DNA of 64,000 bases, taken from the NCBI GenBank assembly GCA_965213625.1, contig CBDBZU010000004.1, positions 1,344,001-1,408,000 of the forward strand, read 5' to 3'. A program made the translations under genes and the position numbers. This stretch comes from a bacterium (GTDB taxonomy: Bacteria > UBA8248). A model generated the notes under the pieces. It worked only from the letters and a program-made list of their open reading frames with translations. It ran no database searches and was not told the DNA's origin. This document shows positions 362 to 19,931 of this stretch, piece by piece; positions within the stretch are counted from its first letter, which is position 1, and each line of letters opens with the position of its first letter.

Positions 362-1720
362 ATGCCGAGAAGAGTCGCCATAATCGGTGCGGGAGTTTCA
401 GGACTGGGGGCGGCCTGGACGCTGAACCGCCACCCCGACAGATTCGATTTCAGGCTCTTTGAGGCGCAGTCCCAGGTGGGCGGCAACGCCGTCACCGCCG
501 ACATGCCGCAAGACGACGGCGCCTCGATTCCCTTCGATATTTCCGTCACCGCCTGCATCCCCTCGGTATACCACCACATTCTTCTTCTGATGCGGCAATA
601 CGGGGTCGAGCTTGTCGATACCCGGTTCAGCTACAGTGTGAAGTATCGAGGCGGTGTTTATGCGCACGATTTTGACTCCGACATCAGGCGGCAGCTTCAA
701 CCGGAAATCGAGAAATTCCAGAAACTGTTAAAACGCCTCAAGTGGTTCGGCGCTCTCAGCCGCTCGCGCTCCAGGTTCCTGGCCGCCCTGAACCCGTTCA
801 ACTACGTGAGCATGGGCGCGGTTCTGAACCTGGGCAAATTTTCAGGCGATTTCATGTACAAGATCCTGAAGCCCATGTTCGTCAACTTCCTGATGGCCAC
901 GAATGTGTTCGATATGCCCGCGTCCCTGTTTTCGAGGTACCTGGAGTTCTTCGACATAGAATCAGCCACGCCCATGCAAACCTGGGGCGGCTGTACGCGC
1001 CGCATCTACGAGGAACTTTCAGCGGACTTCCAAGAGAAGATTTACCTCGAGCGGCCGGTCCGAAAGGTGTATAGAAGTTCATCCGAAGTCGTCGTGGAGG
1101 ATGAAGAGGGGAAAACGGAGAAGTTCGATGACGTCGTTTTCGCGTGCAACGCGAACCAGACGCTGATGATGCTGGATGCGCCGACGCGCTTCGAGAACTG
1201 GCTCCTCTCCTCGATAAGGTATGAGAGCGAACTGCACAATCACACGATCGTTCATTCGGACGCTTCGGTGCTGCCGGAGAGCGACGTCAAGGCGCTCGAA
1301 ACCCGGAGCAACCACATCGAGCAGTACAGCGTGCGGCCCGACAACTACGAGATTACCTACATCATGCACAACCAGCAGCCCTGGGCGAAGCGCTCGGACA
1401 AGCCGTGCCTGGTGACCTACAATCCCATCAGTCCTATTGATGAGAGGAAGATCGTCAAGAAGTGGTGGTTCCAGCACATCGTGCACGACGTGCCGCACGT
1501 GGCCTTGCTCATGCCGATGTTCCGCTTCGCTCAGGGCAGGAGGCGGACTTGGCACTGCGGTGCCCACACGCTCATCAACAGCCAGGAGACCTGTTTCGTG
1601 ACAGGCCTCGCCGCGGCAAGACAATTGGGAGCGGACTATCCGTTTCAAGATATTGAGGCGAGGAAGTGGTTCAACTTCTACGGGCGCACGATGTACGGCC
1701 GGCGTTTCAAGAAGGCGTGA
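362..1720 (+). CDS. FAD-dependent oxidoreductase (COG2907/amine-oxidase-like), probably lipid-modifying
   Basis: N-terminal Rossmann motif VAIIGAGVSGLGAA followed by LFEAQSQVGGN; GAGGGAGG RBS upstream; 452 aa. Confidence 0.8.
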   Translation: MPRRVAIIGAGVSGLGAAWTLNRHPDRFDFRLFEAQSQVGGNAVTADMPQDDGASIPFDISVTACIPSVYHHILLLMRQYGVELVDTRFSYSVKYRGGVYAHDFDSDIRRQLQPEIEKFQKLLKRLKWFGALSRSRSRFLAALNPFNYVSMGAVLNLGKFSGDFMYKILKPMFVNFLMATNVFDMPASLFSRYLEFFDIESATPMQTWGGCTRRIYEELSADFQEKIYLERPVRKVYRSSSEVVVEDEEGKTEKFDDVVFACNANQTLMMLDAPTRFENWLLSSIRYESELHNHTIVHSDASVLPESDVKALETRSNHIEQYSVRPDNYEITYIMHNQQPWAKRSDKPCLVTYNPISPIDERKIVKKWWFQHIVHDVPHVALLMPMFRFAQGRRRTWHCGAHTLINSQETCFVTGLAAARQLGADYPFQDIEARKWFNFYGRTMYGRRFKKA

Positions 1721-1848: not shown

Positions 1849-2057
1849 TAGAGAGCAGCCATGGTCTGGTCGCGTAGTGCAGCGATTAAGATTTTCGTGA
1901 ACGGACGCGGGCAAGGAACAATTTTAAAATGGCAGGTCCGGTTTTGAGAAGAATTATCATCCGCAAACTGATAGGATATAATCATGGAAGGACGCGACAC
2001 GTATTGCTTTCTGCATCTGCCGACTCTGCTGATGGCACTCAAACGGAGGAAACTATA

Positions 2058-2873
2058 ATGCGCGCTCGTCTCGCCCGCACTGTATTCTTGCTTCTCGTAA
2101 TCTGCACGTACGCTCTGGCTCATCTCTCCACCGTGCCGCATGCGGAGAGCGCGACGCCCGAGGAGAAGGGTCTCCAGATCGCGCGCGAAACCCGCGAGAA
2201 AGCCAAAGGTTTCGGGAATTTCACGGCCGAGCAGAGCATGGTGCTTCGCAACAAGCACGGCCAGGAGAGCCGGCGTCAGCTCCGCGTGAAGGTTCTCGAG
2301 ACGGACGGAGGCGGCAACAAGAGCCTGTTCGTCTTCGATCGTCCGCGCGACGTGAGGGGCACTGCGCTGCTCGTTCACACCCATAAGAAGAAGAACGACG
2401 ACCAATGGCTCTACCTGCCCGCTCTCAAGCGGGTAAAGCGCATCAGTTCGTCGAACCAGTCGGGCTCGTTCATGGGCAGTGAATTCGCCTATGAGGACAT
2501 GGGTACGCAGGAGGTGGAGAAATATACCTACCGCTACTTGCGCGATGAGCCTTGCGGAAAGCTGACCTGCACGGTTGTCGAGCGCTTCCCGACGAGCAGG
2601 AGGTCGGGCTACAGGCGTCAAATCGTCTGGCAGGACAAGAGCGAGCTGCGCGCCTGGAAGGTGCAGTACTACGACCGGAAAAACTCACATTTAAAGACGC
2701 TCACACTGGGTAAATTCAAGAAGTATCTGGGTAAGTACTGGCAGGCCGGCGAAATGACGATGGTGAACCACCTGACGGGAAAGAGCACCGTTCTTAGCTG
2801 GAAGGATTACAAGTTCCGCACCAACCTCAAAGAGCGAGACTTCACCCGGACCGGGCTGAAACGGGTGCGCTGA
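2058..2873 (+). CDS. Outer-membrane lipoprotein-sorting (LolA-like) periplasmic carrier protein
   Basis: GGAGG RBS before ATG 2058; signal peptide; motifs PRDVRGTALL, DDQWLYLPALKRVKRI, SFMGSEFAYED. Confidence 0.85.
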   Translation: MRARLARTVFLLLVICTYALAHLSTVPHAESATPEEKGLQIARETREKAKGFGNFTAEQSMVLRNKHGQESRRQLRVKVLETDGGGNKSLFVFDRPRDVRGTALLVHTHKKKNDDQWLYLPALKRVKRISSSNQSGSFMGSEFAYEDMGTQEVEKYTYRYLRDEPCGKLTCTVVERFPTSRRSGYRRQIVWQDKSELRAWKVQYYDRKNSHLKTLTLGKFKKYLGKYWQAGEMTMVNHLTGKSTVLSWKDYKFRTNLKERDFTRTGLKRVR

Positions 2874-4129
2874 TGCCGCTGCGCGCCGCATTTTTCCGCG
2901 CGGTACTCGCCGCTGTCACGATATGGGCCGTACTCATCTTCGCCGGGGCGAGCCACGGGGCCGAAAGCATTGAGCACGAGTTTTCCGGCAGCCTGGACAT
3001 CGATGGCCGGTGGTATCCCCAACTCCAAGCCCATCCCGAACAGCGCACACACGCGAGCGGTTTGGCCGTCGAACCGAAACTCCATTTCAGGGGCGAGGGC
3101 GACTGGAGTTTCACGCTCGCGCCGTTTTTCCGCTACGACGGCGCGGACTCGCGCCGAACCCACGCCGACCTGCGCGAAGCCTACCTTCTGGTGTTCGGTG
3201 AAGCCGGCGAGGGGGAATGGGAGCTACGGCTGGGCGTGGACCGCGTGTTCTGGGGCGTCACCGAGTCGCAGCACCTGGTCGACATCATCAACCAGACCGA
3301 TCTCGTCGAACATCCGAACAAGGAAACAAAGCTGGGCCAGCCCATGGCCCACCTCACATTGTCGGCGGAGTGGGGCATCCTGGAGTTTTTCGCCCTCACC
3401 TATCACCGGGCGCGCACCTTCCCGGGCCTTCATGGCCGCCTGCGCTCCTCGATTCTCATAGACGATGAGCACGTCTCATACAAAAGCGCCGCCCAGGAGT
3501 GGCGCGTGGACCTCGCCGCCCGCTACAGCCACAGCTTCGGGCCGTTTGATTTGGGTGTCAGCGTATTCGACGGGACCAGCCGGGAGCCTTATATCATGCC
3601 GCACCTGGACTCTCTCGGCAGGCTGAGCCTGCGGCAGCACTATGAGAAAATTCGCCAGGTCAGCGTGGACGCCCAGCTCACAATCGAGTCGTGGCTGTTC
3701 AAGCTGGAAGCCCTTCAGCGCGAAGGCGCGCGAAACCTCCAGGGCGTGAAAGAGGACTTCGCCGCTTTCGTCGTCGGGGGTGAATACACCTTCAACTCCG
3801 TTTTCGGCTCGGCCGCCGACCTCGGCCTGCTAGCCGAATGGAATTACGACGAGCGGCGCGAGCGCTCGAACTCCGAGTTCCAGAACGACTTCTTCTTCGC
3901 CGTTCGCCTCGGGCTCAACGACGCCCAGAGCACGGAGCTTATCGCCGGCGTTCTGGCGGACGCGGACCACACCACGCGCACCATGAGCATCGAATTGAGA
4001 CGGCGCCTTTCGGATCAGTGGTCCATGAAGCTGGAATCGATCATTCTCATGGACGTCGACGAAGAAGACATCATCCATGACACGAGGCGGGACAGCTTCG
4101 TGGCCCTGAACGTGACGTATAATTTCTAG
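2873..4129 (+). CDS. Outer-membrane beta-barrel protein, partner of the LolA-like/MMPL system
   Basis: Signal peptide, amphipathic strands, DLREAY and VFWGVTES motifs, C-terminal YNF; translationally coupled (TGATG) to the upstream gene. Confidence 0.75.
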   Translation: MPLRAAFFRAVLAAVTIWAVLIFAGASHGAESIEHEFSGSLDIDGRWYPQLQAHPEQRTHASGLAVEPKLHFRGEGDWSFTLAPFFRYDGADSRRTHADLREAYLLVFGEAGEGEWELRLGVDRVFWGVTESQHLVDIINQTDLVEHPNKETKLGQPMAHLTLSAEWGILEFFALTYHRARTFPGLHGRLRSSILIDDEHVSYKSAAQEWRVDLAARYSHSFGPFDLGVSVFDGTSREPYIMPHLDSLGRLSLRQHYEKIRQVSVDAQLTIESWLFKLEALQREGARNLQGVKEDFAAFVVGGEYTFNSVFGSAADLGLLAEWNYDERRERSNSEFQNDFFFAVRLGLNDAQSTELIAGVLADADHTTRTMSIELRRRLSDQWSMKLESIILMDVDEEDIIHDTRRDSFVALNVTYNF

Positions 4130-4599: not shown

Positions 4600-6633
4600 T
4601 CAGGAAGTGAGGGCGACTGCCCGGTGGTCACTTGCCGCCCGATCAGATGAGAAGATCGGGCGCTTCGACTTGATTCGGAGCTTGAGGCTCTTGCGAGGGG
4701 TGCAGGTCGGAAACGGGTTTATCTTGACCGGGTAGCTCGATGGCAGCACTTCAAGCTCGAAGTAGTAGGCGATCATCAAAAGATTGATCGTCATTTGATA
4801 TTCCGCCACCCTCGGGCCGAGGCAGGTGTGCGTACCGAAACCGAATGCCCCGAACGCGCCGGGTTTCTTGTGCTCCTCGCGCCCGGAAAGATACCGGTCG
4901 ATGTCGAACTTCTCCGGATCCGGATAGTTCTCCTCCATGTAGTGAACGGCAGTGGACGCCAGCACGACGCGGGCATCGATGGGTAGTTCATAGCCCTCCA
5001 CGATGCAGCTGTTCATGACGGTTCTCAGCTGCAACGGTACGCTGGGATAGATCCGGAGGGTTTCTAGAATCAGCCGGTGGGCGGTGTCGATGTTCTCCTC
5101 CTTCAAGTCCTCAGGTCCCGGGTCTCCGTTCGCGAACAGCGCCTCGGCTTCCCTGCGCACACGCTGAAAGACATCCGGATGGGAGACCATCAAATAGAGC
5201 CCGAACGCGACGGCGGTGCCCATATACATGGCTGCGACGAACGGGATGATCATCATGAACCTGGTATCGGTATCCGGGAAGTACTGTGGGTCGCTGGTGT
5301 GCAGGCTGAGCAGGTCGTCGATCAGGTCGCGGGGTTGGTTTTCGCGCTGCGCAGGGGTGTGCGAGTTGCGGATCATGGAATAGACGTGGTCGATGCGCTG
5401 TCGGATGGCCTTCATCCGAGGCGTTCGCATGAAGAACTTCGGCAAAATCTTCTGGGCGTAGGTGATCAACATGCGGTTCTTGTATTTGTGGATGTCGTCC
5501 ACGTATTCTGAAAAATCCATACTGAACAGGAGCCGGGATACCTGGCCGGACATCAGAGTGCGGGTTGCGTCCTTGGCGACGAGCACGTCGCCCACGTTCC
5601 ACGAATCAAGCGCCAGCCGCATCTCTTCGAACAGGTCTCCGAGACGGTTGTTCAGGCGGCTCCGGGAGGAGGCCATCTGGAACGCCTTGCGCATGCGGAA
5701 ATGTTCGGCCCCGTCCATGCCCGGCAGGCTTCTCGATGCGCCGAGTACCTTCTCCATACCCTCCATGGTTTCCTTTGAACGCAAGTGCATCCGACCGTTC
5801 CGGTTTACCCAGATGTTGGCATCGTTCCCGGCGATGATGAAAACTCTCTTCTTGGAAAGGGGAGACTTGATTGCGAAAACGGGACCATAGTCGCGGTAAA
5901 GATCGGCCAGCAGTTTGGACGTATTCCCTTGCCAAAGCGAATCTTTGCGGAGCATTTTCCACAAGCTTACGTTGGGAATGGGTTTTGTCGCTATCGCGAT
6001 AGAGCGACTGACCGATGTCTCCACGACGGCGGCGGCGACGGAGCGGCTGATGCGGTCCAGCATGCCCAGCAGTTCGATTCGCTCGCGCGAAGCCTCGTAG
6101 TCTGCCGGCTGCAGAAGAAACCGGAACGCGTCGCAGGAATTGGCAAGTCCGATGATAATTGCGTCACGGGGGTCGGGTATGCCGTCTCCCAGGATCGTCT
6201 CGATGATTCGCCGACGTACGATTGCCCGAGACTCGCCGCTGGACATACCGTTGTCCGCTATAGCCGCGTTTCGCGAAAGAGACCAGAAGCCGCCGTTCGT
6301 ATAGTCCAGGATCCCGTTTTTCGACAACCGTCCGAGAGCATGATGCAGGATATCGTCCGACGTAGCGGCGATTTTCTCGACCCAGTAATTTATGCTGCGT
6401 GGCTCCGGATCGGCGGCAATTGCCGCCAGCACGGGGTCGAGAATATCGTCTCCCACGGGTGTGGAATCGTCCAGCGCAAACGTCTCGTGCGCGGTGTCGA
6501 GACGGGACTCGAGGTCAAGGTCCGCCAGCACGGCGCCTGCCATAACGCACGAGAGATTCCAGCCCGCAACCTGTTCGAGATAGCCGCTCTCTTCGTTCAG
6601 CAAGAGAAGCAGGAGCTCGTCAATTAGTTTCAT
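4600..6633 (-). CDS. Cytochrome P450 with N-terminal GPP34/GOLPH3-like domain
   Basis: Heme motif FGFGTHTCLG, ExxR (ETLR), PEKFDIDRY. The first ~210 aa (ELLLLLLNEESG, AGAVLADL, GDDILDPVL, PDPRDAIIIGLA) match the GPP34 pattern. Confidence 0.85.
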   Translation of the reverse strand: MKLIDELLLLLLNEESGYLEQVAGWNLSCVMAGAVLADLDLESRLDTAHETFALDDSTPVGDDILDPVLAAIAADPEPRSINYWVEKIAATSDDILHHALGRLSKNGILDYTNGGFWSLSRNAAIADNGMSSGESRAIVRRRIIETILGDGIPDPRDAIIIGLANSCDAFRFLLQPADYEASRERIELLGMLDRISRSVAAAVVETSVSRSIAIATKPIPNVSLWKMLRKDSLWQGNTSKLLADLYRDYGPVFAIKSPLSKKRVFIIAGNDANIWVNRNGRMHLRSKETMEGMEKVLGASRSLPGMDGAEHFRMRKAFQMASSRSRLNNRLGDLFEEMRLALDSWNVGDVLVAKDATRTLMSGQVSRLLFSMDFSEYVDDIHKYKNRMLITYAQKILPKFFMRTPRMKAIRQRIDHVYSMIRNSHTPAQRENQPRDLIDDLLSLHTSDPQYFPDTDTRFMMIIPFVAAMYMGTAVAFGLYLMVSHPDVFQRVRREAEALFANGDPGPEDLKEENIDTAHRLILETLRIYPSVPLQLRTVMNSCIVEGYELPIDARVVLASTAVHYMEENYPDPEKFDIDRYLSGREEHKKPGAFGAFGFGTHTCLGPRVAEYQMTINLLMIAYYFELEVLPSSYPVKINPFPTCTPRKSLKLRIKSKRPIFSSDRAASDHRAVALTS

Positions 6634-7667: not shown

Positions 7668-8690
7668 CTAATCCGGCTTGCGGGCGAGAATGAAATACAT
7701 TGGGGTGAAAATGCCGAGGCGGCCCGTTTCGGCGAATACTTCGGCGGCGAGGTTCAGCAGGCTCGATACCCTGGTCGTCCCGCGCGGCACGATTCTCAGG
7801 AGTTCGAGAAACCATAGCGTGCTGTGCGTCAGCCGACGCCCGACGGCCGAGGAGCGGAAGCTAGCCAGGGACAGACCGGAGCCGACCAGCGGTTGATACC
7901 AGGGAATGCCGGGCGGCGCCTCGGCGGCGAGGTCGCACGATTCGAGCAACTCAAAACCTGCCTGACGCACTGCTTCTTCGATTTCCCGAGGCCGGGCGAT
8001 AAACGGCAGGCCGCCGCTATGCTCCATATCGGCCTTGAGCTTCAGCATTTTGGCATCTTGCGCATCGAAAAGGTCGGTCATGCAGTATTCGTAAACCCCC
8101 AAAAGAGCGCCGGGCTTGAGTACACGAAACGCCTCGGCATAGACACCGGCCTTGTCCGGCGCGCAGCAGGTCGCCTCGATAGAATAGGCGGCGTCGAAGC
8201 TGCCCTCCTGCGCATCCAACTGCATGAAATCGCATTCGATAAAATCGGCCAGATGGCTCAAGCCCGCCGCTTTGGTCCGTTTCGCGGCCCGTTCAATGTG
8301 CATCGCATTGTTGGTGATACCGGTAATCCGGGCACCGGAAAAACGGGCAATTTCGATCAGAGGCCCGCCTACGCCGCAACCCAGGTCGACCGCCTCCATG
8401 CCGGGCTTAAGATTCAGCCTGTGAGTGATGTAATGCTCATGGCGCGCGAGCGAGGCGGCGAAGCTCTCTCCTTCGACACGCGGCGCGAAATGGAATGAGT
8501 GTCCCCATCCGTACTCGTAGAAATCGGTGACCAAGTCGTAATAGTTGTTCGCGAAGTTCAGGTAATCAGTCTTGCGCTCGTCCAGGCCGCCGCGCTCGGC
8601 GCCTCCGTAGCGCCGGTCGTACTCCTGCGCGCTAACTTCGACACGGTCACCGGATTTTGCGTCTTTCAGGATATCAGTGAGCTTGGGCAT
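7668..8690 (-). CDS. Sterol 24-C-methyltransferase-like protein (SMT-A, ERG6/SMT1 family)
   Basis: YYDLVTDFYEYGWGHSFHFAPR, SAM motif DLGCGVGGP, YSIEATCCAP, C-terminal GIFTPMYFILARKP. Confidence 0.9.
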   Translation of the reverse strand: MPKLTDILKDAKSGDRVEVSAQEYDRRYGGAERGGLDERKTDYLNFANNYYDLVTDFYEYGWGHSFHFAPRVEGESFAASLARHEHYITHRLNLKPGMEAVDLGCGVGGPLIEIARFSGARITGITNNAMHIERAAKRTKAAGLSHLADFIECDFMQLDAQEGSFDAAYSIEATCCAPDKAGVYAEAFRVLKPGALLGVYEYCMTDLFDAQDAKMLKLKADMEHSGGLPFIARPREIEEAVRQAGFELLESCDLAAEAPPGIPWYQPLVGSGLSLASFRSSAVGRRLTHSTLWFLELLRIVPRGTTRVSSLLNLAAEVFAETGRLGIFTPMYFILARKPD

Positions 8691-8745: not shown

Positions 8746-9771
8746 CTAATCCGGCTTGCGGGCGAGTATGAAATACATCGGGCTGAAGATGCCGAGCCGA
8801 CCGGCTTCGGCCATGGCGACGGCAGTACGGTTCAGCAGGCTCGAAACATGGGTCGTCCCGTGAGGCACGATTCTCAAGCGTTCGAGTAGCCATAGCATAT
8901 TGTGGGTCAATCGGCGTCCGACTGCCGAGGCGCGGAAGGTGGTGAAGGAAAGGCCGGAGCCGACAAGCGGCTGGTACCAGGGGATGCCGGGCGGTGCGTC
9001 GGCCTCCATGTCGCGCGCTTCGAGCAGTTCGAAGCCGACCTGTCGCAGAGCGTCGTCGACTTCGTGTGGCCGGGCGATATTCGGCATGGCGTTGCCATAT
9101 TCTACATCGGCTTTGATCTGCCGATGATCGGAATTTTCAGCGTCGAACCTATCGGTCATACACCATTCGTATGCCGCGAGAAATTTCCCGGGCTTGAGCA
9201 AGCGGAAAGCTTCGCCATATATAGCGACTTTATTGGGTGCACAGCAGGTCGACTCGACGGAGTAAATCGCGTCGAAGTAGTTGTCCGGCGCGTCGACATC
9301 CATGAAATCGCATTTCAGATATTCGGCCAGATGGCTCAGATGTTCGGCTTCAGTCAGCTCTGCGGCGCGCTTCAACTGGTATGCGTTGTTATTAACGCCG
9401 ACGATTTTTGCGCCGGAAAAGCGGGCGATCTCGCACAATGGACCGCCGACGCCGCAACCCAGATCGGCTACCACCATACCGGGCCGTAGGCCCAGCCTGT
9501 GGGCGATGTAATGTTCATGGCGCGCGAGCGAAGCGGCGAAGCCCTCCCCATCGTAACGCGGCGCGAAGTGAAAGGACTTGCCCCAGCCATACTCAAATAA
9601 GTCTGTAACCAGATCGTAATAAGTGTTCTCGTAATTCTGGTAGTCGGCCTTGCGCTCATTCCGGCCGTCGCTCTCCATGTCGCTGAAGCGGCGCTCCCAC
9701 TCCTGGATGCGCGAGGCGACGTCGTCGCCGGATTTCGCGTCTTTCAGTATCTCCGTGAGCTTGGGCTTCAC
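8746..9771 (-). CDS. Sterol 24-C-methyltransferase-like protein (SMT-B)
   Basis: YYDLVTDLFEYGWGKSFHFAPR, DLGCGVGGP, LKPGKFLAAYEW, GIFSPMYFILARKP; GTG start overlaps the MMPL stop (GTGA). Confidence 0.9.
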   Translation of the reverse strand: MKPKLTEILKDAKSGDDVASRIQEWERRFSDMESDGRNERKADYQNYENTYYDLVTDLFEYGWGKSFHFAPRYDGEGFAASLARHEHYIAHRLGLRPGMVVADLGCGVGGPLCEIARFSGAKIVGVNNNAYQLKRAAELTEAEHLSHLAEYLKCDFMDVDAPDNYFDAIYSVESTCCAPNKVAIYGEAFRLLKPGKFLAAYEWCMTDRFDAENSDHRQIKADVEYGNAMPNIARPHEVDDALRQVGFELLEARDMEADAPPGIPWYQPLVGSGLSFTTFRASAVGRRLTHNMLWLLERLRIVPHGTTHVSSLLNRTAVAMAEAGRLGIFSPMYFILARKPD

Positions 9772-12063
9772 CGCAAGTCCATACGGTCAAGGACCATCAA
9801 CAGGGGCGGGAGGAGCAGGAGGTCCAGGAACAGCGCGAAGCCGAGCGTAAGCGCAACCAGGAGGCCGAGCATCCAACTGATCGCGAATCCCGACAAAGCG
9901 AACACCAGGAAGCCCAGCACCAGCATCATGGTCGTGGTGAACAGCGCAAAGCCTACCGAACGGAAGGAATAGCGCACCGCCTCGATCGATGAAAGACCCT
10001 CCTCGCGACGTCCCTTCAGATACTTGCTCATGAAATGAATCGTGTCGTCGACGACGGTGCCGAAGGCGATTGCGGTCACGAGGGACCCGGCGGGCCCCAC
10101 CTCGACGTACAGATAACCCCAGACGCCGAAGGCCATGGCCGCGGGGATGAGGTTGGGCACGAGGCTGACGAGGCCTAAGCGCAGGCTCTTGAAAATCCCG
10201 ATCAGGATCAGCGAAATGAGGATCATGCCCGTGAGCGTGCCCCATAACATGCTCAAGGTGTTCCGTAAGGCCAGGTGGGCGAAAATGAGGCTGTACCCCG
10301 ATGCTTCGCTCGCGAGTTTGGGCGCGTTGGCGCGGAGCCAGTCCTGCCCACGCGCTTCGAGCGCGCGCAGTTCCTCGGACTTCAGTCTTTTGACCGTCAC
10401 GGTCATGCGTGTTGCGGATTTGGCGATGTTGATGCGGTTGTTGAGGTCCATGCCAAAGGGAACCGAAAGCTCGTAGAGCAGCAGGTACTGCGCGGCGAGC
10501 CGGGAGTTTTCGGGCAGCCGGTGGAAGGCCGGCTTGTCGCCGTTCATGTTCTTGTTGAGGCGCTTCATGATGTCCGTAAATACCTGCACGTGCGCGACTT
10601 CCGGCTGGGCGCGGTACCACTTGGCGAATGCTTCGACTTTGCCCAGATACTTGGGATCGGTGATGCCGCCATCGCGCCCCGAGTTCAGGGAGTACTCCAG
10701 GGTTTCCACGCCGGTCAGGTTCTCGATGACGAAGTCCGTGTCGCGCCGGAATTCGTAACGCTCATCGAGGTGCTGCGTCCAGTTGTCCGTCAACTCGACG
10801 CGGGGCACGCCGGCCACGAGCGCGATCGCGACGGCGGCCACGGACCAGAGCAGGAGCGTGCGGCGCGCGACGACGAAGGCGCCGAGGCGATCGAAGAGGT
10901 TGGAACCCCCGGCGCGTACGGCAGGCGCGCGCAACGGCAGGACCGACATCAGCGCCGGCAGAAGCGTCATGGAATAGACGTAGGCGCAGAACATGCCGAA
11001 CGCCACCAGGTTGCCGAGGATCCGGAATGGCGGAGAATCCGAGGCGTTCATGCTGAGGAAGCCGATAATCGTCGTGGCCGTCGTCAGGAACACCGGCCAG
11101 GCATTGTCGCGCAGCGATTCGGCAATTGCCGCGTCCCTGTCCAGGCCACTCCTCATACTTGAAATGATCGACTCGACGACGTGGACCGAGTGCGCGATGG
11201 CGAGCGTCATGATGATGAGGGGAACGCCGGAATTGGCGGCGTTGAGCACCAGGCCTATCCAGCCGATGACGCCCATGGTCGAGATGACGGTGAAGATGAT
11301 CACGGCGATGAGAGACAGCGTGCCGAACAGAGAGCGCAGAAGGATGGCGGCGACGAAGACGATGACGAAGAATGCGGCGGGCGCGAGTATCCCCATATCG
11401 TCCTGGGCCGCTTCGGTTAGAACCTGGTTCACGAAGACGTTGCCGGTTACGTGATATTGGATATCGGGATGCTTCGCCCGGGCTTTGGCCAGGAGTCCGC
11501 GGATATGGTGGTAAATCCGGATTTCCGCGGCGTCCGAACGCTCGGGCAAGGCGAAACTGATGACCAGCCCGGCAACGCGTCCGTCGCGGGAGACGAGACG
11601 GTCCACGATGCTGCTCTCGCTTAACGCAATCTTCTTTATCCGCGCGATATCGTCGTCGCCGAGCGACCCCGCGTCGTCGACGAGGCGCTCGACGATCAAG
11701 TCGTCCTCTTCCGCCTCTGTGTGGTTATAGTTCGTAATCGAGTCGACCCGTGTGGCCCTGGGCACGCGCCAGGCGGCTTCGGTCAACTCCTCGACGGCGC
11801 CGAGCGCCTCCCGCGTGAACACCGACCCCCCCTTTGGGCGCGACGGCGATCACCGCCGCATTGGTCGCTGAATAGGTAGCCTCCATGGCGTCGAATGCCA
11901 CGAGTTGGGGGTTGCCCACGTCCAGCATGTCGCGCCAGTCGTTGGAGATGACGATTGTGCGGAGGCCGACTGCCAGAATCAGCATGACCGCTACGCTCGC
12001 CGCGAGGACCAGCCATCTGCGGCGCAGCATGAACGTGATGTAGCGGTTCAGAGTTGCGGACAT
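9768..12063 (-). pseudogene. MMPL/RND (COG1033-type) lipid transporter, frameshifted in a G7 run
   Basis: ORFs 11725-12063 and 9768-11822 join into a full-length paralog of 20459 and 24394 if one C of the run 11826-11832 is removed (restores KGGSVFTREAL). Confidence 0.85.
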
Positions 12064-12408: not shown

Positions 12409-13928
12409 GGGTCTGTTGAAAAACCCGGTGTTGGAAGCGGGCGTTTTGGCGGCTCACGCGGCGGCGGGGAGGCAGCCCAATCGGCGCGTGAGGGCGCCAT
12501 GTGCGCGCAGCCGGCGTCTCCGGGCGGCACAGGCCGTCCACAAGGCGAATATACGCGCCGCAAAAGCGGCGGCCAGCCGCTTGAGGTTCACCGCTATCGC
12601 CGTCAGGTAGGACTGGATCCGCATGTTCGCAAGGCCCCGGCGCACCGCCCGCCCCAGTCCGTGCCGGCTCTTCGCCTCGCCGTGGTAGCCCTCCGAGCGC
12701 CAACGGTGGCGGCCATAGAGACGCTTCTCCTCCTCCCCCCAGCGCGCATGCCGCCGACGCGCGCGCAACAGCGCCGGATACGCGTGCGGAATCAACACCG
12801 TCCTGCTCGTGCGCGACTTCGACAGACAATCGGGCCTGAGCGCGCAGCCCGCGCAATCCCGCGTCTTCGATACATAGGAGCGCCCCCGCTCCGTCGCCTG
12901 CCGGGGGCGCAGCGTCTTGCCTCCCGGACACTTCACCACCTCGTTGCGCGCGTCGTAGTGGAACAACTGCAGCGGAACACGGCTCTGGCTGGGTTCCTTC
13001 TTCGCTGGTATCAGCGCTTCCACGCCCCGCCGCTCCAATTCGCCGTAAACCTTCGAGTACGCGTACCCCGAATCCGCCGTCACCATCTCCGGCGTGCGGC
13101 CCGACAACTCGCTTACCGCCTCTATATGGGACGCCATCATCTCACGCTCGTTCCGCGTCCCCTCCGTCACTGACACGTCGAGAACAACACCCCGCTCATC
13201 GTCCACCGCCGCGTGCTGCTTGTAGCTCGGCTCGAACCCCGCCCGCGCGCTCTTGCGCGCAAGCCGCGCGTCCGGGTCCGTCCGGCTCACCGGACCCCCG
13301 CCACCGCGGCCTCCTCCCTTCTTCCCGACCTCATCATCGACGGGATTCTCCTGAATCACCTTCTCCGCGTGGTGCGCCGCCAGGCTCTCCCAGCTCACGT
13401 CCGCGCGTATCAACGAGGCGTCCACGTGCACCACTTCCCCCTTCGCCACATTCGCCTCCAGGCAAGCCTGCACCGTGCGACGGAATATCTCCTTGAACCG
13501 TGCCTCCCCCCAGCGCTGACGTATCCGCGTCAGGCTCGAATGATGCGGCAACTCCTCGTGCAGCCCGTACCCGATGAACCACCGGATCGCCAGGTGCGCA
13601 CGCGCCTCGCGAAGCAGGCGACGGTCGTGAACGTAGCCCAGCAACATACCCGCCAGCATCAAGCGGAGCGCCACCTCCGGGTCGATCCCCGGACGACCGT
13701 TATCCGCGCAATAGCAATCCGCCACCTCCTCCCGTAGCCAGCTCAAATCCAGTACGTGGTCCACGCGCATCAGGACGTGATCCTCGGGGATCAGCCGTTC
13801 CAGCGAACCGGCCACGAACAAATCCATCTGCTCGCGCCTCTTGCTGCCTATCATCGAGGGAACTCCCATCTCGGGCGAGATAGTGTCATTACACCCAATC
13901 ACAATGCCGGGGCTTTTTCAACAGCCCC
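12409..13928 (-). mobile_element. IS1182-family insertion sequence
   Basis: Imperfect terminal IRs GGGTCTGTTGAAAAACCCGG (12409-12428) and CCGGGGCTTTTTCAACAGCCCC (13907-13928); flanking 5-bp direct repeat TGTAA (12404-12408, 13929-13933). Confidence 0.85.
12454..13902 (-). CDS. IS1182-family DDE transposase (true start probably slightly downstream)
   Basis: DUF772-like N-terminus (LIPEDH, GRPGIDPE, HSSLTRIRQR); DDE motifs HVDASLI and ADSGY; C-terminal CxxCxxRxxC and NLKRL. Confidence 0.9.
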   Translation of the reverse strand: MIGCNDTISPEMGVPSMIGSKRREQMDLFVAGSLERLIPEDHVLMRVDHVLDLSWLREEVADCYCADNGRPGIDPEVALRLMLAGMLLGYVHDRRLLREARAHLAIRWFIGYGLHEELPHHSSLTRIRQRWGEARFKEIFRRTVQACLEANVAKGEVVHVDASLIRADVSWESLAAHHAEKVIQENPVDDEVGKKGGGRGGGGPVSRTDPDARLARKSARAGFEPSYKQHAAVDDERGVVLDVSVTEGTRNEREMMASHIEAVSELSGRTPEMVTADSGYAYSKVYGELERRGVEALIPAKKEPSQSRVPLQLFHYDARNEVVKCPGGKTLRPRQATERGRSYVSKTRDCAGCALRPDCLSKSRTSRTVLIPHAYPALLRARRRHARWGEEEKRLYGRHRWRSEGYHGEAKSRHGLGRAVRRGLANMRIQSYLTAIAVNLKRLAAAFAARIFALWTACAARRRRLRAHGALTRRLGCLPAAA

Positions 13929-14046: not shown

Positions 14047-14970
14047 ATGAGACTGATTTCACACCGTAATAACACTTGTAATCGAATAGTCGTCGTGGCG
14101 GCCGCCCTTGCCGTCTTCCTTCTGGCGGCGTTCGCACCCGATGCGCGCGCCGCAGATTCGGGCGCGGATTCGAGATGGTACTTCGGCTTGAACGTGCCCG
14201 TCATGTTCATCGACGACTCGGACAGCGTCGAGACCGGGGAAGCCGTAAGGGCAGGGGCCCCCCTGCCAGTCCCGTACAGGGCGAACGCCGTCACGGAATA
14301 CGCTACGGGGTTCCGGGTCAGCGGCGTGGTGGGCCGTGAATTCGCCTCGGGCCTGCGCATCGACGGCGAACTGTTCTTCGCCAAGGCCGAGGTCGACAAG
14401 CTGATCTACAAAGGACGGACGACGACCGTTCCGGTACTAGGCACTATAGATGTACCGGGCGACCATTCCATCCCCGTGTCCGGCTCGGCGACCCAGGTGG
14501 GCGCCATGGTGAACCTCTGGTACGACTTCAATCCCGGCTCCAAATGGAGGCCCTACGTCGGCGGCGGCTTCGGCTTCGTCCGGGTCGACTGGGGCAACGT
14601 GAAGTATAACCGCAACGAGGTCGCGCAAGGGGCCGCGAACCAGCTTGCGCTCATCGGCGCATGCGCGCGGCTGATGCAGCCACCGGGCTGCGCTCTGCCT
14701 CCTCAGGTCGAACAAGGGGTAATCAGCCAGGCCACCCTGCCTCCGGGGACCGTGCCCGAGCTTTCCGAAACCGATACGGTGGCCGCCTTTCAATTCGGCG
14801 CGGGAGTGGGCTACCAGTATTCCGACGCCCTCACCATCCAGTTGGGCTACCGCATGCTGAAAGCCGGCGACCTGGAGTTCAGCGGCGGCAGCGCCATGGG
14901 TTCAAATGCCACGGCGACGACCGAAATGCTGGTTCATCTCTTCGAGATAGGTTTGCGCTATCGGTTCTAG
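14047..14970 (+). CDS. OmpA/OmpW/opacity-like small outer-membrane beta-barrel with long loop insertion
   Basis: Signal peptide; MVNLWYDF, PYVGGGFG, FQFGAGVGY; C-terminal IGLRYRF. Confidence 0.8.
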   Translation: MRLISHRNNTCNRIVVVAAALAVFLLAAFAPDARAADSGADSRWYFGLNVPVMFIDDSDSVETGEAVRAGAPLPVPYRANAVTEYATGFRVSGVVGREFASGLRIDGELFFAKAEVDKLIYKGRTTTVPVLGTIDVPGDHSIPVSGSATQVGAMVNLWYDFNPGSKWRPYVGGGFGFVRVDWGNVKYNRNEVAQGAANQLALIGACARLMQPPGCALPPQVEQGVISQATLPPGTVPELSETDTVAAFQFGAGVGYQYSDALTIQLGYRMLKAGDLEFSGGSAMGSNATATTEMLVHLFEIGLRYRF

Positions 14971-15102
14971 GCGCCGTGTGGACCCTGAGCGTCCCTCCGG
15001 GACGAGGAACGGGGTTGGGCGCACCTCATGCGGTTGCCGGCCGGGCATGAGGCCGGCCGTACCCGCAGACGAAGCCGCGGCCGTTGAACCAGGAAATGGC
15101 GG

Positions 15103-16140
15103 ATGCCGATGAAAACCGGCCAACAAGAGATCAAGGAACCACGCGCGCTTTATCCGTTTCCGGAAGGCTGGTACTTCGTCGCCACCCGAAAGACGATAGA
15201 AAAGAAGAAGCTGATCCAGAGAACCAGGATGGGCGAGCGAATCGTCGTCTGGTGCGACGATGAGGGGCGCATCTGCGTGGCCGAGGACCTCTGCCCGCAC
15301 CTGGGCTCCGAACTCGGTCCCGAGGTCGGCGGTATGGTGCGAAACGGCTGCCTCGTCTGTCCCTTTCACGGGTTCGAATACGACGCCACCGGGCAATGCG
15401 TCAAGACGCCCTACGCGCCCGCGCCCCGGACCGCCAGGCTGAACGTGTTCGAGACGCGCGAGATTCTGGGCCTCGTATTCGCTTGGTGGGGGGTGGGCGG
15501 ACGTCCGCCGCAATGGCGCCTGCCGGAGGAGCCGGGTGGTGACGACTGGAGCGACCTCGAAACCTGGAGCGTCAGGTTCACGGGGCATCCCCAGGAGACT
15601 ACCGAGAACTCCGTCGACGACGGACACCTGCGCTACGTGCACGGCTTCGGCAGCGTGAACCGGGTCGGAACCATCGAGGTGGACGGCTCCTACCTCAAGA
15701 GTTGCTTCGACTTCACGCCAAGCCAGACTTTCGCCGGGATCAATATATACACATACGACGTTTCCACGATCACCCACGTGCACGGGCTGGGCTATTCGTT
15801 CGTCGAGGTCCAGGAGCACGGCATCGGCATGGAAACGCGCCTGTGGGTGCTTGCGACGCCGGTCGACGGCGACCTGCTCGAAATGGTGCTGGTCAGCCAG
15901 GTGAAGCGAATGCGCAAGCCGAAGCGTGCGATCATCGGCATGCGTTTCCTGCCCGTCGGCCTGCGCACCTGGCTCATGAACAAGATCATCATATCGGCCC
16001 AGAAACGCGACGTGTTGTCGGACGTCGTCATATGGGACCGGAAACAGTATATTCCCCGCCCCCGCCTGTGCAGCTCGGACGGGGAGATTGGAACCTTCCG
16101 GCGCTATTGCGAGCAATTCTATCCGGAGCATACGGATTGA
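15103..16140 (+). CDS. Rieske [2Fe-2S] oxygenase, Neverland/DAF-36 (cholesterol 7-desaturase) or KshA-like
   Basis: CPHLG...CPFHG Rieske motif; ENSVDDGHLRYVHG mononuclear iron motif; N-terminal FPEGWY; C-terminal DVVIWDRKQY...LCSSDGEIGTFRRYCEQFY. Confidence 0.85.
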   Translation: MPMKTGQQEIKEPRALYPFPEGWYFVATRKTIEKKKLIQRTRMGERIVVWCDDEGRICVAEDLCPHLGSELGPEVGGMVRNGCLVCPFHGFEYDATGQCVKTPYAPAPRTARLNVFETREILGLVFAWWGVGGRPPQWRLPEEPGGDDWSDLETWSVRFTGHPQETTENSVDDGHLRYVHGFGSVNRVGTIEVDGSYLKSCFDFTPSQTFAGINIYTYDVSTITHVHGLGYSFVEVQEHGIGMETRLWVLATPVDGDLLEMVLVSQVKRMRKPKRAIIGMRFLPVGLRTWLMNKIIISAQKRDVLSDVVIWDRKQYIPRPRLCSSDGEIGTFRRYCEQFYPEHTD

Positions 16141-16231
16141 GTCCGGAAGAGCGAGGCCGCCGGGTGAGACGTCCACGCCATCGCCCGCGCGGGTTTCGCC
16201 GCAGACGAAGAGGGAAGGGATACGCCACGCC

Positions 16232-17266
16232 ATGGATATAGGCAAGCTATCGAAAGAACTCAAGGATGCCTACCAGGAGGGGAACGTCACCCGTCGCGTG
16301 CAGGAATTCGAGGACTGGATCGACCGGGCGACGGCGGAGACCGACGGCGCGAGCGGGTACGACCACACCGAAACGGTGAAGGCCTACTACGACCTCTGCA
16401 GCGGTTTCATGGTGTGGGGTTGGGGCGAATCCCTGCACTTCGCGCCCCTCACGCCGCATGAGAGCCTGGAGGACTCCAAAGTCCGGCATCAGCGGTGGAT
16501 GATCGACAAGCTGGAACTGGAAGAGGGCATGACGGTGGTCGACGTCGGTTGCGGCATCGGCGGCCCGATGCGCCGCGTCGTCCGTGAGGCCGGCGTGCGG
16601 GTCGTCGGGATCAACATCAACAAAATCCAGTTGGAAAGGGCGAAGAGGCTGAACGCCGAGGCGGGGCTGGACAACATGATCGATTTCGAGGCGTGCAGCT
16701 TCATGGATATGAGCGCCATCGAGAACGAAACGTTCGACCGGGGCTACGCCATCGAGTCGACGTGCCATGCGCCGGACAAGCAACGCGCGTTCGCGGAGAT
16801 ATACCGCGTGCTGAAACCCGGCGCCCTGTTCTGGGGTCAGGAGATGTGCCTGACGGACAAGTACGACCCGAACGACAGCCGGCATCAGGCCATCAAGCGC
16901 GAACTCATGCGCGGCATCGCGCTGAAAGACGTCGCGACGTTCGGGGAAGTGAACCAGGCGCTCGAAGCGGCGGGATTCCACGTCATCGAGGGAATGGACC
17001 GGGACGTCCAGGAGGGACCGTCCACGCCATGGTATCAACCCATGGAGAGCCGGCACGGGACGTTGGGCAACGCCTTGCGCAGGCTACCGCAGGGCCGCAA
17101 AGCGTTCCTCGCGGGATCGAAGCTGGCCGAGGTGGTTCGGCTGTTTCCAAAAGGCTCCGCGGAAGTCGTCCGGCTCCTGGACCGGACGGCGGACGCCTAT
17201 GTCGCGGGCGGCAAATCGGGTATCTTCACGCCGCTGTACTGTTTCCTGGCGCGCAAACCCCTTTAG
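16232..17266 (+). CDS. Divergent sterol C-methyltransferase-like protein (SMT-C)
   Basis: YYDLCSGFMVWGWGESLHFAP, DVGCGIGGP, YAIESTCHAP, GIFTPLYCFLARKP; start re-called to ATG 16232. Confidence 0.85.
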   Translation: MDIGKLSKELKDAYQEGNVTRRVQEFEDWIDRATAETDGASGYDHTETVKAYYDLCSGFMVWGWGESLHFAPLTPHESLEDSKVRHQRWMIDKLELEEGMTVVDVGCGIGGPMRRVVREAGVRVVGININKIQLERAKRLNAEAGLDNMIDFEACSFMDMSAIENETFDRGYAIESTCHAPDKQRAFAEIYRVLKPGALFWGQEMCLTDKYDPNDSRHQAIKRELMRGIALKDVATFGEVNQALEAAGFHVIEGMDRDVQEGPSTPWYQPMESRHGTLGNALRRLPQGRKAFLAGSKLAEVVRLFPKGSAEVVRLLDRTADAYVAGGKSGIFTPLYCFLARKPL

Positions 17267-17630
17267 CCCCGACTAGCGCCGCGCCCGCCGCTCCACGCTG
17301 GCGGCTACTCAGGGTGAGGTCGATTAAGTAGCCAAAAATGACGAGGGGTACGCGCTCGCTACCAGAACCGGGTTTTTCAACAACCCCTTGCCAGGGGGGC
17401 TTATTCACCATCCCCAAGGAGGGGGGGATTGCGCGCCCCTCCCCTGAAAGCGCACGTCGAGAATCGATCCCGCCCGTTCGGGAAAGGCTGGTTCCGACCA
17501 GACGATAAGATGAGATGCCCGGTAACGCCGACCCCTCGATTTCGTGGACAAACGATGCACGAGCATGTAGATTGACGGCTCTTTCAACGACTTTACTCTT
17601 TCGCGGTTCTCTTATCATTTGGAGTATGCC

Positions 17631-19931
17631 ATGGCGGAAGCCAAAGACATGGGCGGCGCCGTAGTCGGCGGTTCTCTACCCTTTCTGGACGACCCCGAAA
17701 AGGCGGCGGGCGCCGCGGATTATCTCGACGACCTCCAGCTTCCGGGGATGCTGGTCGGCAAGGCGCTTCGCAGCGAACACGCGCACGCCGAGATAGTATC
17801 GGTCGATGCGAGCGAGGCGCTGCGCGTTCCGGGCGTCGTCTCCGTTCTCACGGGAGAGGACCTGCCGAACCATCCCTGCATCACCGCCCATAATAGGGCC
17901 ATGCCCATCATCGCCCGCGACAGGGTGCGCTACATGGGCGAGGTGGTCGCCCTCGTCGCGGCGGAAACGCTCGAGGCGGCCGAGGCGGCGACGCGGCTCA
18001 TCGAGGTCGAATACCGGCCCCTGCCCGTCATCTCCTGTCCGCGCGAGGCGATGAAAGAAGACGTAGAAATCATTTTCCCCGGCGGGAACGTGCTCAACCA
18101 GGCCAAGATACGAAAAGGGGACGTCGAGGAGGGCTTCGAGCAGGCCGACGTGATCATCGAGAACGAATACTCCACACCCTCCATCGATCACCTATATCTC
18201 GAAGTGGAGGCGGCTTGCGCGAGTCCGAACCCCGGCGGCGGAATACAAATCTGGGGCTCGACCCAGCAGCCCTTTCTGGTGAGACAGAATGTCGCCCGCA
18301 TACTGGGCCTCAAGGGCGAGAGTTCGGTTCGTTTCGTCCAGACGACCACCGGCGGAGCTTTCGGCGGAAAGAGTGAAGCGAGTCTCGACGTGTGCCTGCG
18401 CGTAGCAGTCCTTGCCCGCGCCGCCGGCAGGCCCGTAAAGCTCGTGTATTCGCGCGAGGAAAGCATGATTGCCTCAACCAAGCGCCACGCCTCTTTCATC
18501 CGCTCCAAAACCGGGGCGACGAAGGACGGACGCCTGGTGGCCGTCGAGGTGGAAGTATGGCTGGACAAGGGGGCGTATGTGGCAAACGGGGGAGACAACC
18601 CGCCCGCCTTCAAGCGCGCAACCTACCATGCCGCAGGTCCCTACCAGGCGCCCAACGTGAAGGTGGACGTTCATTGCGTGCACACGAATCACCCCTACGG
18701 GGGACAGATGCGCGGGCCGGGATGTCCCCAGGTTCACTTCGCGGGCGAGCAGCAGATGGACGAACTCGCCAGTGTATTGGGAATGGACCCCATCGAGATC
18801 AGGCGTTTGAACGGGTTGCGGGTTGGTACCCGGACGGCCTGGAACCAGCACCTGCCCGAGAGCGTGGGATTTCTCGATACGCTGAAGGAAGTGGAGCAGG
18901 CCTCATCCTGGGGTAGTGCGGGCAATGGGGACCGAAGGGCCGAGGATGGCCGCTTGCGCGGGCGCGGCGTGGCGAGTTGTCTCTACGGGACGGGCAACGC
19001 CTACTCCCCGGCCGAGGCGCACGTCTTCCTCACGGCAGAAGGAAAGGTGCAGGTGGCCGCCGGGGTCGTGGATTTCGGCCAGGGCAGTAAGACGGTGCTT
19101 TGCCAGATCGCCGCCGAAACGCTGGACGTTCCCTATTCGGAGTTCCTGATGGATAGCGTGGATACCGCCATCGACCCGTTCGGCGGCACGAGTTCGAGTT
19201 CGCGCATCACCATGCAGGGCGGCAAGGCGGTCTACAACGCTTCACTCAAGGCGCGGGACGAGTTGCTGCGTTTGGGCGGGATTCTGTTGGAGGCGGACCC
19301 CGAAGACTTGGAATTGCGCGGCGGCGTGGTTCGCTCGCGGTCGCATGAGGAAACGAGTATTACGCTTGCCGAGATAGCTGGAGCTTTCGTCGCCGATGAA
19401 CTCAAGCAGATCGGCGCTGCGGACAGCATTCCGCCGCCCGCCAAGACCGACAAGGAAACCGGCTTGGGCGAGCCGTATGAAATTTACGGGTTCGGCAGCC
19501 AGGTGGCCGAAGTGTTGGTGGACGAAGAGACGGGCGAGGTGGAGGTCACCGGCGTCTGGGCCGCGCACGACGTGGGCCGGGCCATCAGCCCAATGGGCGT
19601 GGAGCAGCAGATCGAGGGTGGCGTCTACATGGGCATCGGTTTTTGCATGATGGAGGAAGTCGTTCAGAGCGAGGGCATGATGCAGAACCCCGACATGCAC
19701 GGCTATCTCGCGCCCACGGTGGAGGACGTACCGGACCGGGTGGCGTCCCTCATCGTGGAGGATGCATATTCGAACGGCCCTTACGGGGCCAAGGGAGTCG
19801 GGGAGCAAGTGACCGTTCCCACGGCGGCGGCCATCGCCAACGCGGTTTATAACGCCACGGGCGTACGGTTCCACGACCTGCCCCTGACGCCGGACAGGGT
19901 CGCCATGGCGCTTTTGAAGAAGAGGTCATGA
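17631..19931 (+). CDS. Xanthine dehydrogenase-family molybdopterin-binding subunit
   Basis: GGAFGGK, MRGPG, GQGSKT, QQIEGG, GAKGVGE, AIANAVYNATG motifs. Confidence 0.9.
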   Translation: MAEAKDMGGAVVGGSLPFLDDPEKAAGAADYLDDLQLPGMLVGKALRSEHAHAEIVSVDASEALRVPGVVSVLTGEDLPNHPCITAHNRAMPIIARDRVRYMGEVVALVAAETLEAAEAATRLIEVEYRPLPVISCPREAMKEDVEIIFPGGNVLNQAKIRKGDVEEGFEQADVIIENEYSTPSIDHLYLEVEAACASPNPGGGIQIWGSTQQPFLVRQNVARILGLKGESSVRFVQTTTGGAFGGKSEASLDVCLRVAVLARAAGRPVKLVYSREESMIASTKRHASFIRSKTGATKDGRLVAVEVEVWLDKGAYVANGGDNPPAFKRATYHAAGPYQAPNVKVDVHCVHTNHPYGGQMRGPGCPQVHFAGEQQMDELASVLGMDPIEIRRLNGLRVGTRTAWNQHLPESVGFLDTLKEVEQASSWGSAGNGDRRAEDGRLRGRGVASCLYGTGNAYSPAEAHVFLTAEGKVQVAAGVVDFGQGSKTVLCQIAAETLDVPYSEFLMDSVDTAIDPFGGTSSSSRITMQGGKAVYNASLKARDELLRLGGILLEADPEDLELRGGVVRSRSHEETSITLAEIAGAFVADELKQIGAADSIPPPAKTDKETGLGEPYEIYGFGSQVAEVLVDEETGEVEVTGVWAAHDVGRAISPMGVEQQIEGGVYMGIGFCMMEEVVQSEGMMQNPDMHGYLAPTVEDVPDRVASLIVEDAYSNGPYGAKGVGEQVTVPTAAAIANAVYNATGVRFHDLPLTPDRVAMALLKKRS

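Follow-up and report, generated by a model that had tools for sequence, protein, structure and literature searches.

What does the third member of the sterol methyltransferase (SMT) family at this locus do, with a sterol-binding motif that has been rewritten? The window, that is the whole 64,000-nucleotide stretch that was analysed, carries this gene, here called SMT-C (16232..17266, plus strand), along with SMT-A (7668..8690, minus strand) and SMT-B (8746..9771, minus strand). The SMT-C frame opens with the ATG at 16232, behind a purine-rich tract resembling a ribosome-binding site, and runs to the TAG at 17266 with zero internal stops, encoding 344 amino acids. A contig from an independent read set (run X3, possibly of the same sample) spans 14786-16966 with 0 differences to the window. 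The protein is 38% identical to SMT-A and 38% to SMT-B; SMT-A and SMT-B agree with one another at 224 of 340 residues. An earlier note on this DNA had reported a rewritten Region I, LCSGFMVWGWGESLHF, with QEM in Region IV, in an otherwise intact and uninterrupted gene, and these readings were borne out: Region I is YYDLCSGFMVWGWGESLHFAP in SMT-C, LVTDFYEYGWGHSFHF in SMT-A and LVTDLFEYGWGKSFHF in SMT-B, Region IV reads WGQEMC as against YEYC/YEWC in SMT-A/B, the SAM motif is DVGCGIGGP, and the C-terminal Sterol_MT_C domain is present (PF08498, E 1e-15, 58 bits for a cut-off of 21.7) beside PF08241 (E 9e-18). Structure prediction, which the note had proposed as a check, gave a class I SAM-methyltransferase fold in AlphaFold (pLDDT 82.9 for the top model and 46-52 for the remaining four), and Foldseek matches agreed; the PDB/Foldseek search returned no full-length SMT relative at E <= 1e-8, the top matches being of the RebM/MitM/TleD type. 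Scores against NCBIfam models of cyclopropane fatty acid/mycolic acid synthases were 40-57 bits, far under the family cut-offs of 390-650, and that identity was rejected. Comparison of two RNA runs with the window gave 5% of words, as scattered pieces from related strains, and a promoter/terminator scan gave 2 and 4 sites for 1.0 and 3.1 expected by chance.

By alignment, Region I covers residues 52-72 (16385..16447), the SAM-binding Region II D104-P112 (16541..16567), Region III with E175 lies at 16739..16774 and Region IV at 16817..16849, Regions II and III being intact. Residues are given below in yeast numbering, inferred from motif offsets without the yeast sequence itself, so that M60 is position 81, L68 is 89, H69 is 90, E175 is 195, Q203 is 223, M205 is 225 and I229 (16916..16918) is 249, the gate of repeated methylation in tested SMTs. 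To see which changes are fixed, we used the best 120 of 1,799 homologues (77-94% identical to SMT-C), the best 80 of at least 491 confirmed relatives from a genome scan (73-94% identity; the genome loci) and 63 further loci from a metagenome scan, whose patterns came from a deep-branching relative and which returned clade members only. Met81, Leu89, Gln223 and Met225 occur in 80/80 genome loci (best 80 of at least 491) and in all covered metagenome loci (60-63 of 63), and Ile249 in 76 of the same best 80; 109 other SMTs have mostly Tyr, Phe, Tyr, Trp and Asn/Asp at these positions. The signature of the clade is thus Y81M, F89L, Y223Q and W225M, and the E204 between the last two is kept. Of 121 aligned sequences, 41 (SMT-C itself among them) have exactly the Region I string of SMT-C, and together with the fixed residues this places the motif changes beyond chance drift. 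The earlier emphasis on a lost Asp and Glu held only in part: Asp79 and Glu82 are absent from SMT-C, but across the best 80 loci position 79 is Gly in 51, Glu in 18, Ala in 6, Pro in 3, Asp in 1 and Lys in 1, position 82 is Val in 70 and another residue in 10, and outside the clade Asp79 is found in 67 and Glu82 in 88 of the 109 SMTs. We therefore rejected their loss as the key change in favour of the aromatic losses. In Region I, Y81 and F89 are lost, and W85, F91 and an aromatic at 83 (Trp83) are kept. A 2025 preprint by Brown and Welander (10.64898/2025.12.19.695621) lists five residues as essential in yeast, H90, D125, G129, P133 and E195, but not D79 or E82, and all five are kept in 80/80 genome loci (best of at least 491), as expected of a 24-C-SMT. 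The same source describes 25 residues, T78 and F89 included, as conserved in all functional SMTs; SMT-C keeps 23 of them (T78 is Ser and F89 is Leu) and so lacks the full set of a functional 24-C-SMT (EC 2.1.1.41/143).

A rewritten motif could also mark an enzyme that has died, either a decaying gene or a pseudo-enzyme kept for binding or as a scaffold. Pairwise dN/dS of SMT-C against the 80 loci (Nei-Gojobori; the query is in every pair, so the pairs are not independent) was 0.09-0.31 with a median of 0.20, none of the 80 loci (best of at least 491) had an internal stop, and dN was 0 across Regions I and IV among the closest relatives. The gene is thus not decaying, and the relaxed selection (dN/dS near 1) that the earlier note had named as a refutation was not seen. 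Pseudogene decay is excluded by these values together with the invariant SAM-binding and catalytic residues; since pure binding would not need H90, a dead enzyme is very improbable, even with a homologue that, by the deduction set out below, gave no product. Judged from its sequence, SMT-C is real, conserved and probably active as a methyltransferase.

The phylogeny that had been suggested as a further check gives SMT-C a clade of its own. In a FastTree of 128 sequences (8 of an initial 136 were discarded for poor coverage, and representatives were limited to 290-480 amino acids), this clade has a support of 1.00 and a long stem (0.57) and sits among bacterial SMT branches; the deeper nodes are weak (0.86-0.90), and the nesting is tentative because all rows are SMT-like matches and the root is a midpoint. 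Identity of SMT-C to the canonical SMTs of this set is 33-43%. With ERG6, SMT1, SMT2 and functional bacterial SMTs it shares PF08241 and PF08498, Regions II and III, H90 and E195 and the 23 residues above, and it differs from 24-C-SMTs by T78S, by the four signature changes and Ile249, and by usually lacking a genomic cyclase or a second SMT. Titles of the best 80 of at least 491 loci come from at least ten phylum-level groups of sponge and coral symbionts: Nitrospinota, Nitrospirales, Chloroflexota, Gemmatimonadota, Latescibacterota, Actinomycetes, Bacteroidota, Acidobacteria, Binatia, Dadabacteria/Thermodesulfobacteriota and Gammaproteobacteria. By the accession prefixes that Brown et al. 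give for sponge metagenomes, 25 of the 63 metagenome loci belong to Petrosia ficiformis (12), Sarcotragus foetidus (9) and Aplysina aerophoba (4), and the others were not assigned to a host. The dS of SMT-C pairs is mostly 0.4-1.0 even across phyla, implying horizontal spread. SMT-C is a conserved separate clade of the SMT family in sponge and coral symbionts. In Ircinia symbionts, SMT/ERG6 genes were reported as enriched and sterol clusters as transferred across 10 phyla (PMC9531527), a study that, in the parts at hand, does not separate SMT-C from true C24 SMTs. Two variants were observed: a deeper-branching paralogue (L135:7542-8573; 57% identity) that genome G018 carries in addition to the usual copy, and a cluster (P0013, 9 members of 473-477 amino acids) with the C-terminal part of a Rieske protein in frame with SMT-C, either a genuine fusion or, following a deletion, an artefact of start calling.

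One member of the clade has already been expressed, which limits its newness. The protein 'Nitrospira sp., coral reef SMT 2 of 2' (IMG 2682229270) of Brown et al. 2023 (PMC10070321) is 83% identical to SMT-C, and the gene order of our locus L125 (SMT-C, Rieske, OMP, flavoprotein, SMT, SdmB, SdmA, ERG24, CYP51, SMO-OSC) fits ids 270 and 274-279 of Supplementary Data 1 of that paper, which identifies '2 of 2' as SMT-C. There, 2/10 sponge-symbiont and 2/14 environmental SMTs were inactive on desmosterol and 24-methylenecholesterol, the only substrates in the assay of the Nitrospira protein; the supplements at hand have no wording on its inactivity, and the available text does not describe the clade, its signature or its cassette. 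Of the 25 residues common to all functional SMTs, 4 are altered in the Nitrospira protein (2 in SMT-C), which, if the numbering is right, marks the Nitrospira protein as one of the inactive ones; by deduction, then, it would be inactive on both sterols. Poor expression might be the cause: inactivity was also seen in four SMTs that have every conserved residue, and the authors consider it possible that other substrates are required (10.64898/2025.12.19.695621).

SMT-C might accordingly be read as an ordinary C24 methyltransferase that needs other rings, such as those of lanosterol, cycloartenol, Delta7/Delta8 or 3-oxo sterols. Its 23 conserved residues would suit this, only two Delta5 sterols were assayed by authors who allow for other substrate needs, and the source genome, with an SMO-OSC fusion and no CYP51 or SdmA/B match, could supply a protosterol. 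However, most carriers cannot make such a substrate, sterol-making carriers usually have a canonical SMT too, and the long stem with its fixed side-chain-pocket changes suggests an altered reaction, so that we hold this explanation to be rather improbable. Methylation at C28, one of the reactions put forward in the earlier note, is unlikely as well. G249I in Chl_SMT abolished the C29/C30 products and SMT-C has Ile249, the homologue was also given 24-methylenecholesterol, and enzymes of the propylating or C28-methylating type combine a small residue (Gly) at 249 with Phe at 81 or 83, where SMT-C has Met81 and Trp83.

SMT-B is canonical (25/25 residues, F81, N249) and SMT-A near-canonical (24/25, with Q154H, and Gly249); close relatives have zero or one SMT in this slot, so both are accessory. 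The proposal that SMT-C takes the third step after SMT-A/B is not supported, since it is the sole SMT-like match in 34 of 50 carrier genomes and a second SMT lies near it in only 6 of 80 genome loci (best 80 of at least 491), which rules out an obligate partnership. These 50 carriers were picked out of the 80 for long contigs, about 7 are of the same genus as the source, and their completeness is not given. An OSC-type cyclase was found in 6 of them (about 185 bits, frames of 1,130-1,270 amino acids) and SHC-type scores in 11, the other 44 lacking an OSC-type match; 47 have the Rieske gene, 40 the flavoprotein, and 29 a full-length ERG4/ERG24-family reductase, which occurs in 0 of 14 control genomes. 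In L125 and L128 the SMT-C cassette adjoins a de novo sterol cluster, and the cassette of L130, from a small genome with no cyclase match, is accompanied by an SMT of canonical type, by an ERG24-like reductase and by MMPL/LolA/OMP genes. The source genome has the SMO-OSC fusion and an ERG24-like gene, and tblastn found no CYP51 or SdmA/B orthologue in it, so its sterol pathway may be truncated. Its SMO-OSC fusion (G000:C4:57822-63487) is followed by a second GPP34-P450 with a degenerate-looking heme-binding loop.

The neighbourhood of SMT-C, counted up to 10 kb around each locus, is recurrent. Among the 80 genome loci (best 80 of at least 491), a GPP34-P450 occurs near SMT-C in 71, a KshA-type Rieske gene in 64 (65 on a looser count) and a flavoprotein in 33 (looser, 35); the shorter metagenome loci have the P450 in 36/63, the Rieske gene in 18/63, the flavoprotein in 5/63 and another SMT in 1/63. 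Gene order and orientation vary among loci, and an RND pump recurs at 52 of the 143 SMT-C loci. Spearman distance correlations of SMT-C with the P450, Rieske protein and flavoprotein were 0.60, 0.66 and 0.27, values that are confounded by host kinship. In the window, the KshA-type Rieske oxygenase (15103..16140, plus strand; Pfam Rieske and KshA_C; best PDB matches KshA, E 2e-23) lies directly upstream of SMT-C, and an outer-membrane beta-barrel gene (14047..14970, plus strand; 8/80 loci, best of at least 491) precedes the Rieske gene. The GPP34-cytochrome P450 fusion lies at 4600..6633 (minus strand) and the flavin oxidoreductase (PF01593) at 362..1720 (plus strand). The usual P450 I-helix motif is AGxET; this family, of at least 2 subfamilies about 40-45% apart, has a conserved AxxYxG(D/T) instead, which suggests non-standard chemistry. 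The P450 domain of the window had a single distant match in the PDB, and that of L125 none at E <= 1e-25. The window also has an MMPL/RND transporter with a sterol-sensing domain (9768..12063, minus strand) and a LolA-like periplasmic protein with a 418-amino-acid outer-membrane protein (1929..4129, plus strand), which may work with the MMPL proteins in lipid uptake. One extra base in a poly-C run near 11826 interrupts the MMPL frame, and the X3 contig lacks this base, so the split is probably a homopolymer error of the assembly and not a pseudogene. The MMPL-SMT block is separated from the OMP-Rieske-SMT-C block by a DDE transposase (12454-13902, minus strand).

The cassette does not depend on SMT-C. 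In 51 genomes of the same phylum as the source, all four genes are limited to one genus, with SMT-C in 10, each partner in 13 and none in 37; these genomes are kin and not independent. Two near-complete, single-contig genomes (G081 and G085) have the P450, the Rieske gene and the flavoprotein with SMT-C absent, which makes SMT-C dispensable to the cassette. An optional gene beside two oxygenases is what a capping step would look like, and SMT-C might then methylate a nucleophile made by its partners, either on carbon, at the enol of a 3-oxo steroid (the reaction of the nematode 4-SMT), or on oxygen, at a hydroxyl or carboxyl that the P450 or the Rieske enzyme had introduced. KshA works on 3-ketosteroids, the fixed changes strip four aromatics from the protein, and the nematode STRM-1/4-SMT (PMC6997595) is a precedent for an SMT with a remodelled Region I and new chemistry: it has been argued off carbocation chemistry because its Region I is without the signature aromatics, and its pathway uses an imported sterol and a Rieske enzyme, DAF-36. 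Compared by description only, the nematode enzyme is far more diverged (21% identity to Erg6, as against 33-43% to canonical SMTs for SMT-C), and unlike it SMT-C appears to arise among bacterial SMTs. Moreover, W-G-W and H-F are still present in Region I of SMT-C, and in the partly annotated clusters of recurrent neighbours no 3-hydroxysteroid oxidase family is prominent. We consider methylation of such a nucleophile unlikely.

The substrate could also be a hydrophobic olefin that is no steroid, such as a polyprenyl chain, squalene or a fatty acyl chain, which the cassette would methylate, desaturate and oxygenate. The flavoprotein leads in this direction, with PDB matches to LkcE (E 8e-25, over its length) and to 2b9w (E 7e-6), a fatty-acid isomerase. 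Its matches in the protein atlas are only FAD oxidoreductases without names. Similar flavoproteins partner fatty-acyl methyltransferases, a pairing on which our search found no usable paper, and the squalene methyltransferases of Botryococcus are SMT relatives. The 44 of 50 carriers without an OSC-type match fit as well. However, SMT-C still has its Sterol_MT_C domain, its Rieske partner resembles KshA, and genes of sterol synthesis, canonical SMTs and ERG24-like reductases turn up repeatedly with the cassette; a non-steroid substrate is accordingly quite unlikely.

We lean, by a little, towards SMT-C as an active C-methyltransferase for an unusual and probably host-derived steroid, and the clade as a whole would, with slightly better than even chances, be a candidate steroid C-methyltransferase that is catalytically intact and neofunctionalised. 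We infer a steroid substrate of host origin, C-methyl chemistry and one shared pathway. The symbiont would import host sterol through the MMPL, LolA and outer-membrane proteins, the P450, Rieske protein and flavoprotein would alter it, and SMT-C would move a methyl group from SAM to a steroid carbon outside the standard C24/C28 positions. The substrate would be some steroid other than desmosterol and 24-methylenecholesterol, with either a side-chain olefin (Delta25, giving C26 extension, Delta22, or one made by the partners) or an alteration by the partners. SAM binding and the His base (H90) would be kept in a re-shaped side-chain pocket, and SMT-C would add a non-essential tailoring step to a symbiont cassette that has spread horizontally and that takes up and modifies host-derived sterols. 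This reading draws support from the place of the clade among bacterial SMTs, the purifying selection, the 23 of 25 residues kept, the KshA-like Rieske partner, the 29/50 carriers with a sterol reductase homologue, and the retention of H90, the proposed base, and of E195, which binds the sterol. Against it, the four lost aromatics are those thought to stabilise the carbocation, which fits a non-carbocation mechanism too, 21/50 carriers are without a full-length sterol reductase homologue, and the characterised relatives of the flavoprotein are not steroid enzymes. Of the new chemistry that the earlier note had proposed, a new substrate or reaction is thus favoured over decay by the dN/dS of 0.20, the residues kept and the deduced inactivity of the homologue; the third step is not supported, C28 is unlikely, and none of the results singles out C26/C27 methylation or cyclopropanation.

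More specifically, SMT-C may be the missing sterol C26 methyltransferase or a SAM-dependent side-chain cyclopropanase, a possibility we regard as doubtful although attractive. Symbionts of many phyla would import host Delta25 sterols such as epicodisterol, and SMT-C and its partners would build skeletons of the aplysterol, petrosterol or 26-methylstigmastane type. Petrosterol shares the C26-extended skeleton. The attraction lies in the facts that (epi)codisterol, which would be the C26 substrate, is a product of sponge and bacterial SMTs, that no 26-SMT is known, and that aplysterol or petrosterol is a major sterol in two of the three named hosts (PMC10070321). On the other side, SMT-C is equally common in symbionts of Sarcotragus, a genus for which the same paper, in the parts at hand, tables no such major sterol. 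Spread as it is over dozens of symbionts, SMT-C resembles a general adaptation to life in sponges more than a maker of host-specific sterols. If the C26 reading were true, the 'sponge' biomarker for the earliest animals would be partly bacterial.

According to the literature, the enzymes of C26 methylation have yet to be discovered and matter for the debate on the sponge biomarker, and in 2025 the question of which partner alkylates, host or symbiont, was still called unresolved; the SMT-C clade offers a short candidate list for this question. Many sponge-symbiont genes named 'sterol 24-C-methyltransferase' belong to it and should not be counted as evidence for C24 alkylation. The GPP34-P450 fusion, reported as exclusive to sponge symbionts, gains a metabolic context in steroid tailoring, unlike the published idea of a phagocytosis modulator (anti-phagocytosis) in PMC11706023, whose main text, as available, has 0 occurrences of 'methyltransferase'. 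Our search of the open literature found no characterisation of the clade or of a 26-SMT; the available part of PMC13277303 had nothing bearing on SMT-C, and 10.1101/2022.05.16.491679 and PMC12541326 were also drawn on in part. Our contributions are the dN/dS test, the split between fixed and variable residues, and the genomes with the cassette but without SMT-C.

Other genes of the window were also recorded. At 55021-56118 (minus strand) lies a gene for a 365-amino-acid protein without a Pfam match. Downstream of SMT-C, a molybdenum subunit of the xanthine dehydrogenase family (17619-19931, plus strand) adjoins the cassette in L206 too, at 90% identity. An MpaB/Lcp-type oxygenase (22849-23925, minus strand) is flanked by two more MMPL genes and also adjoins the cassette in L031, L082 and L206; it could cleave an isoprenoid double bond.
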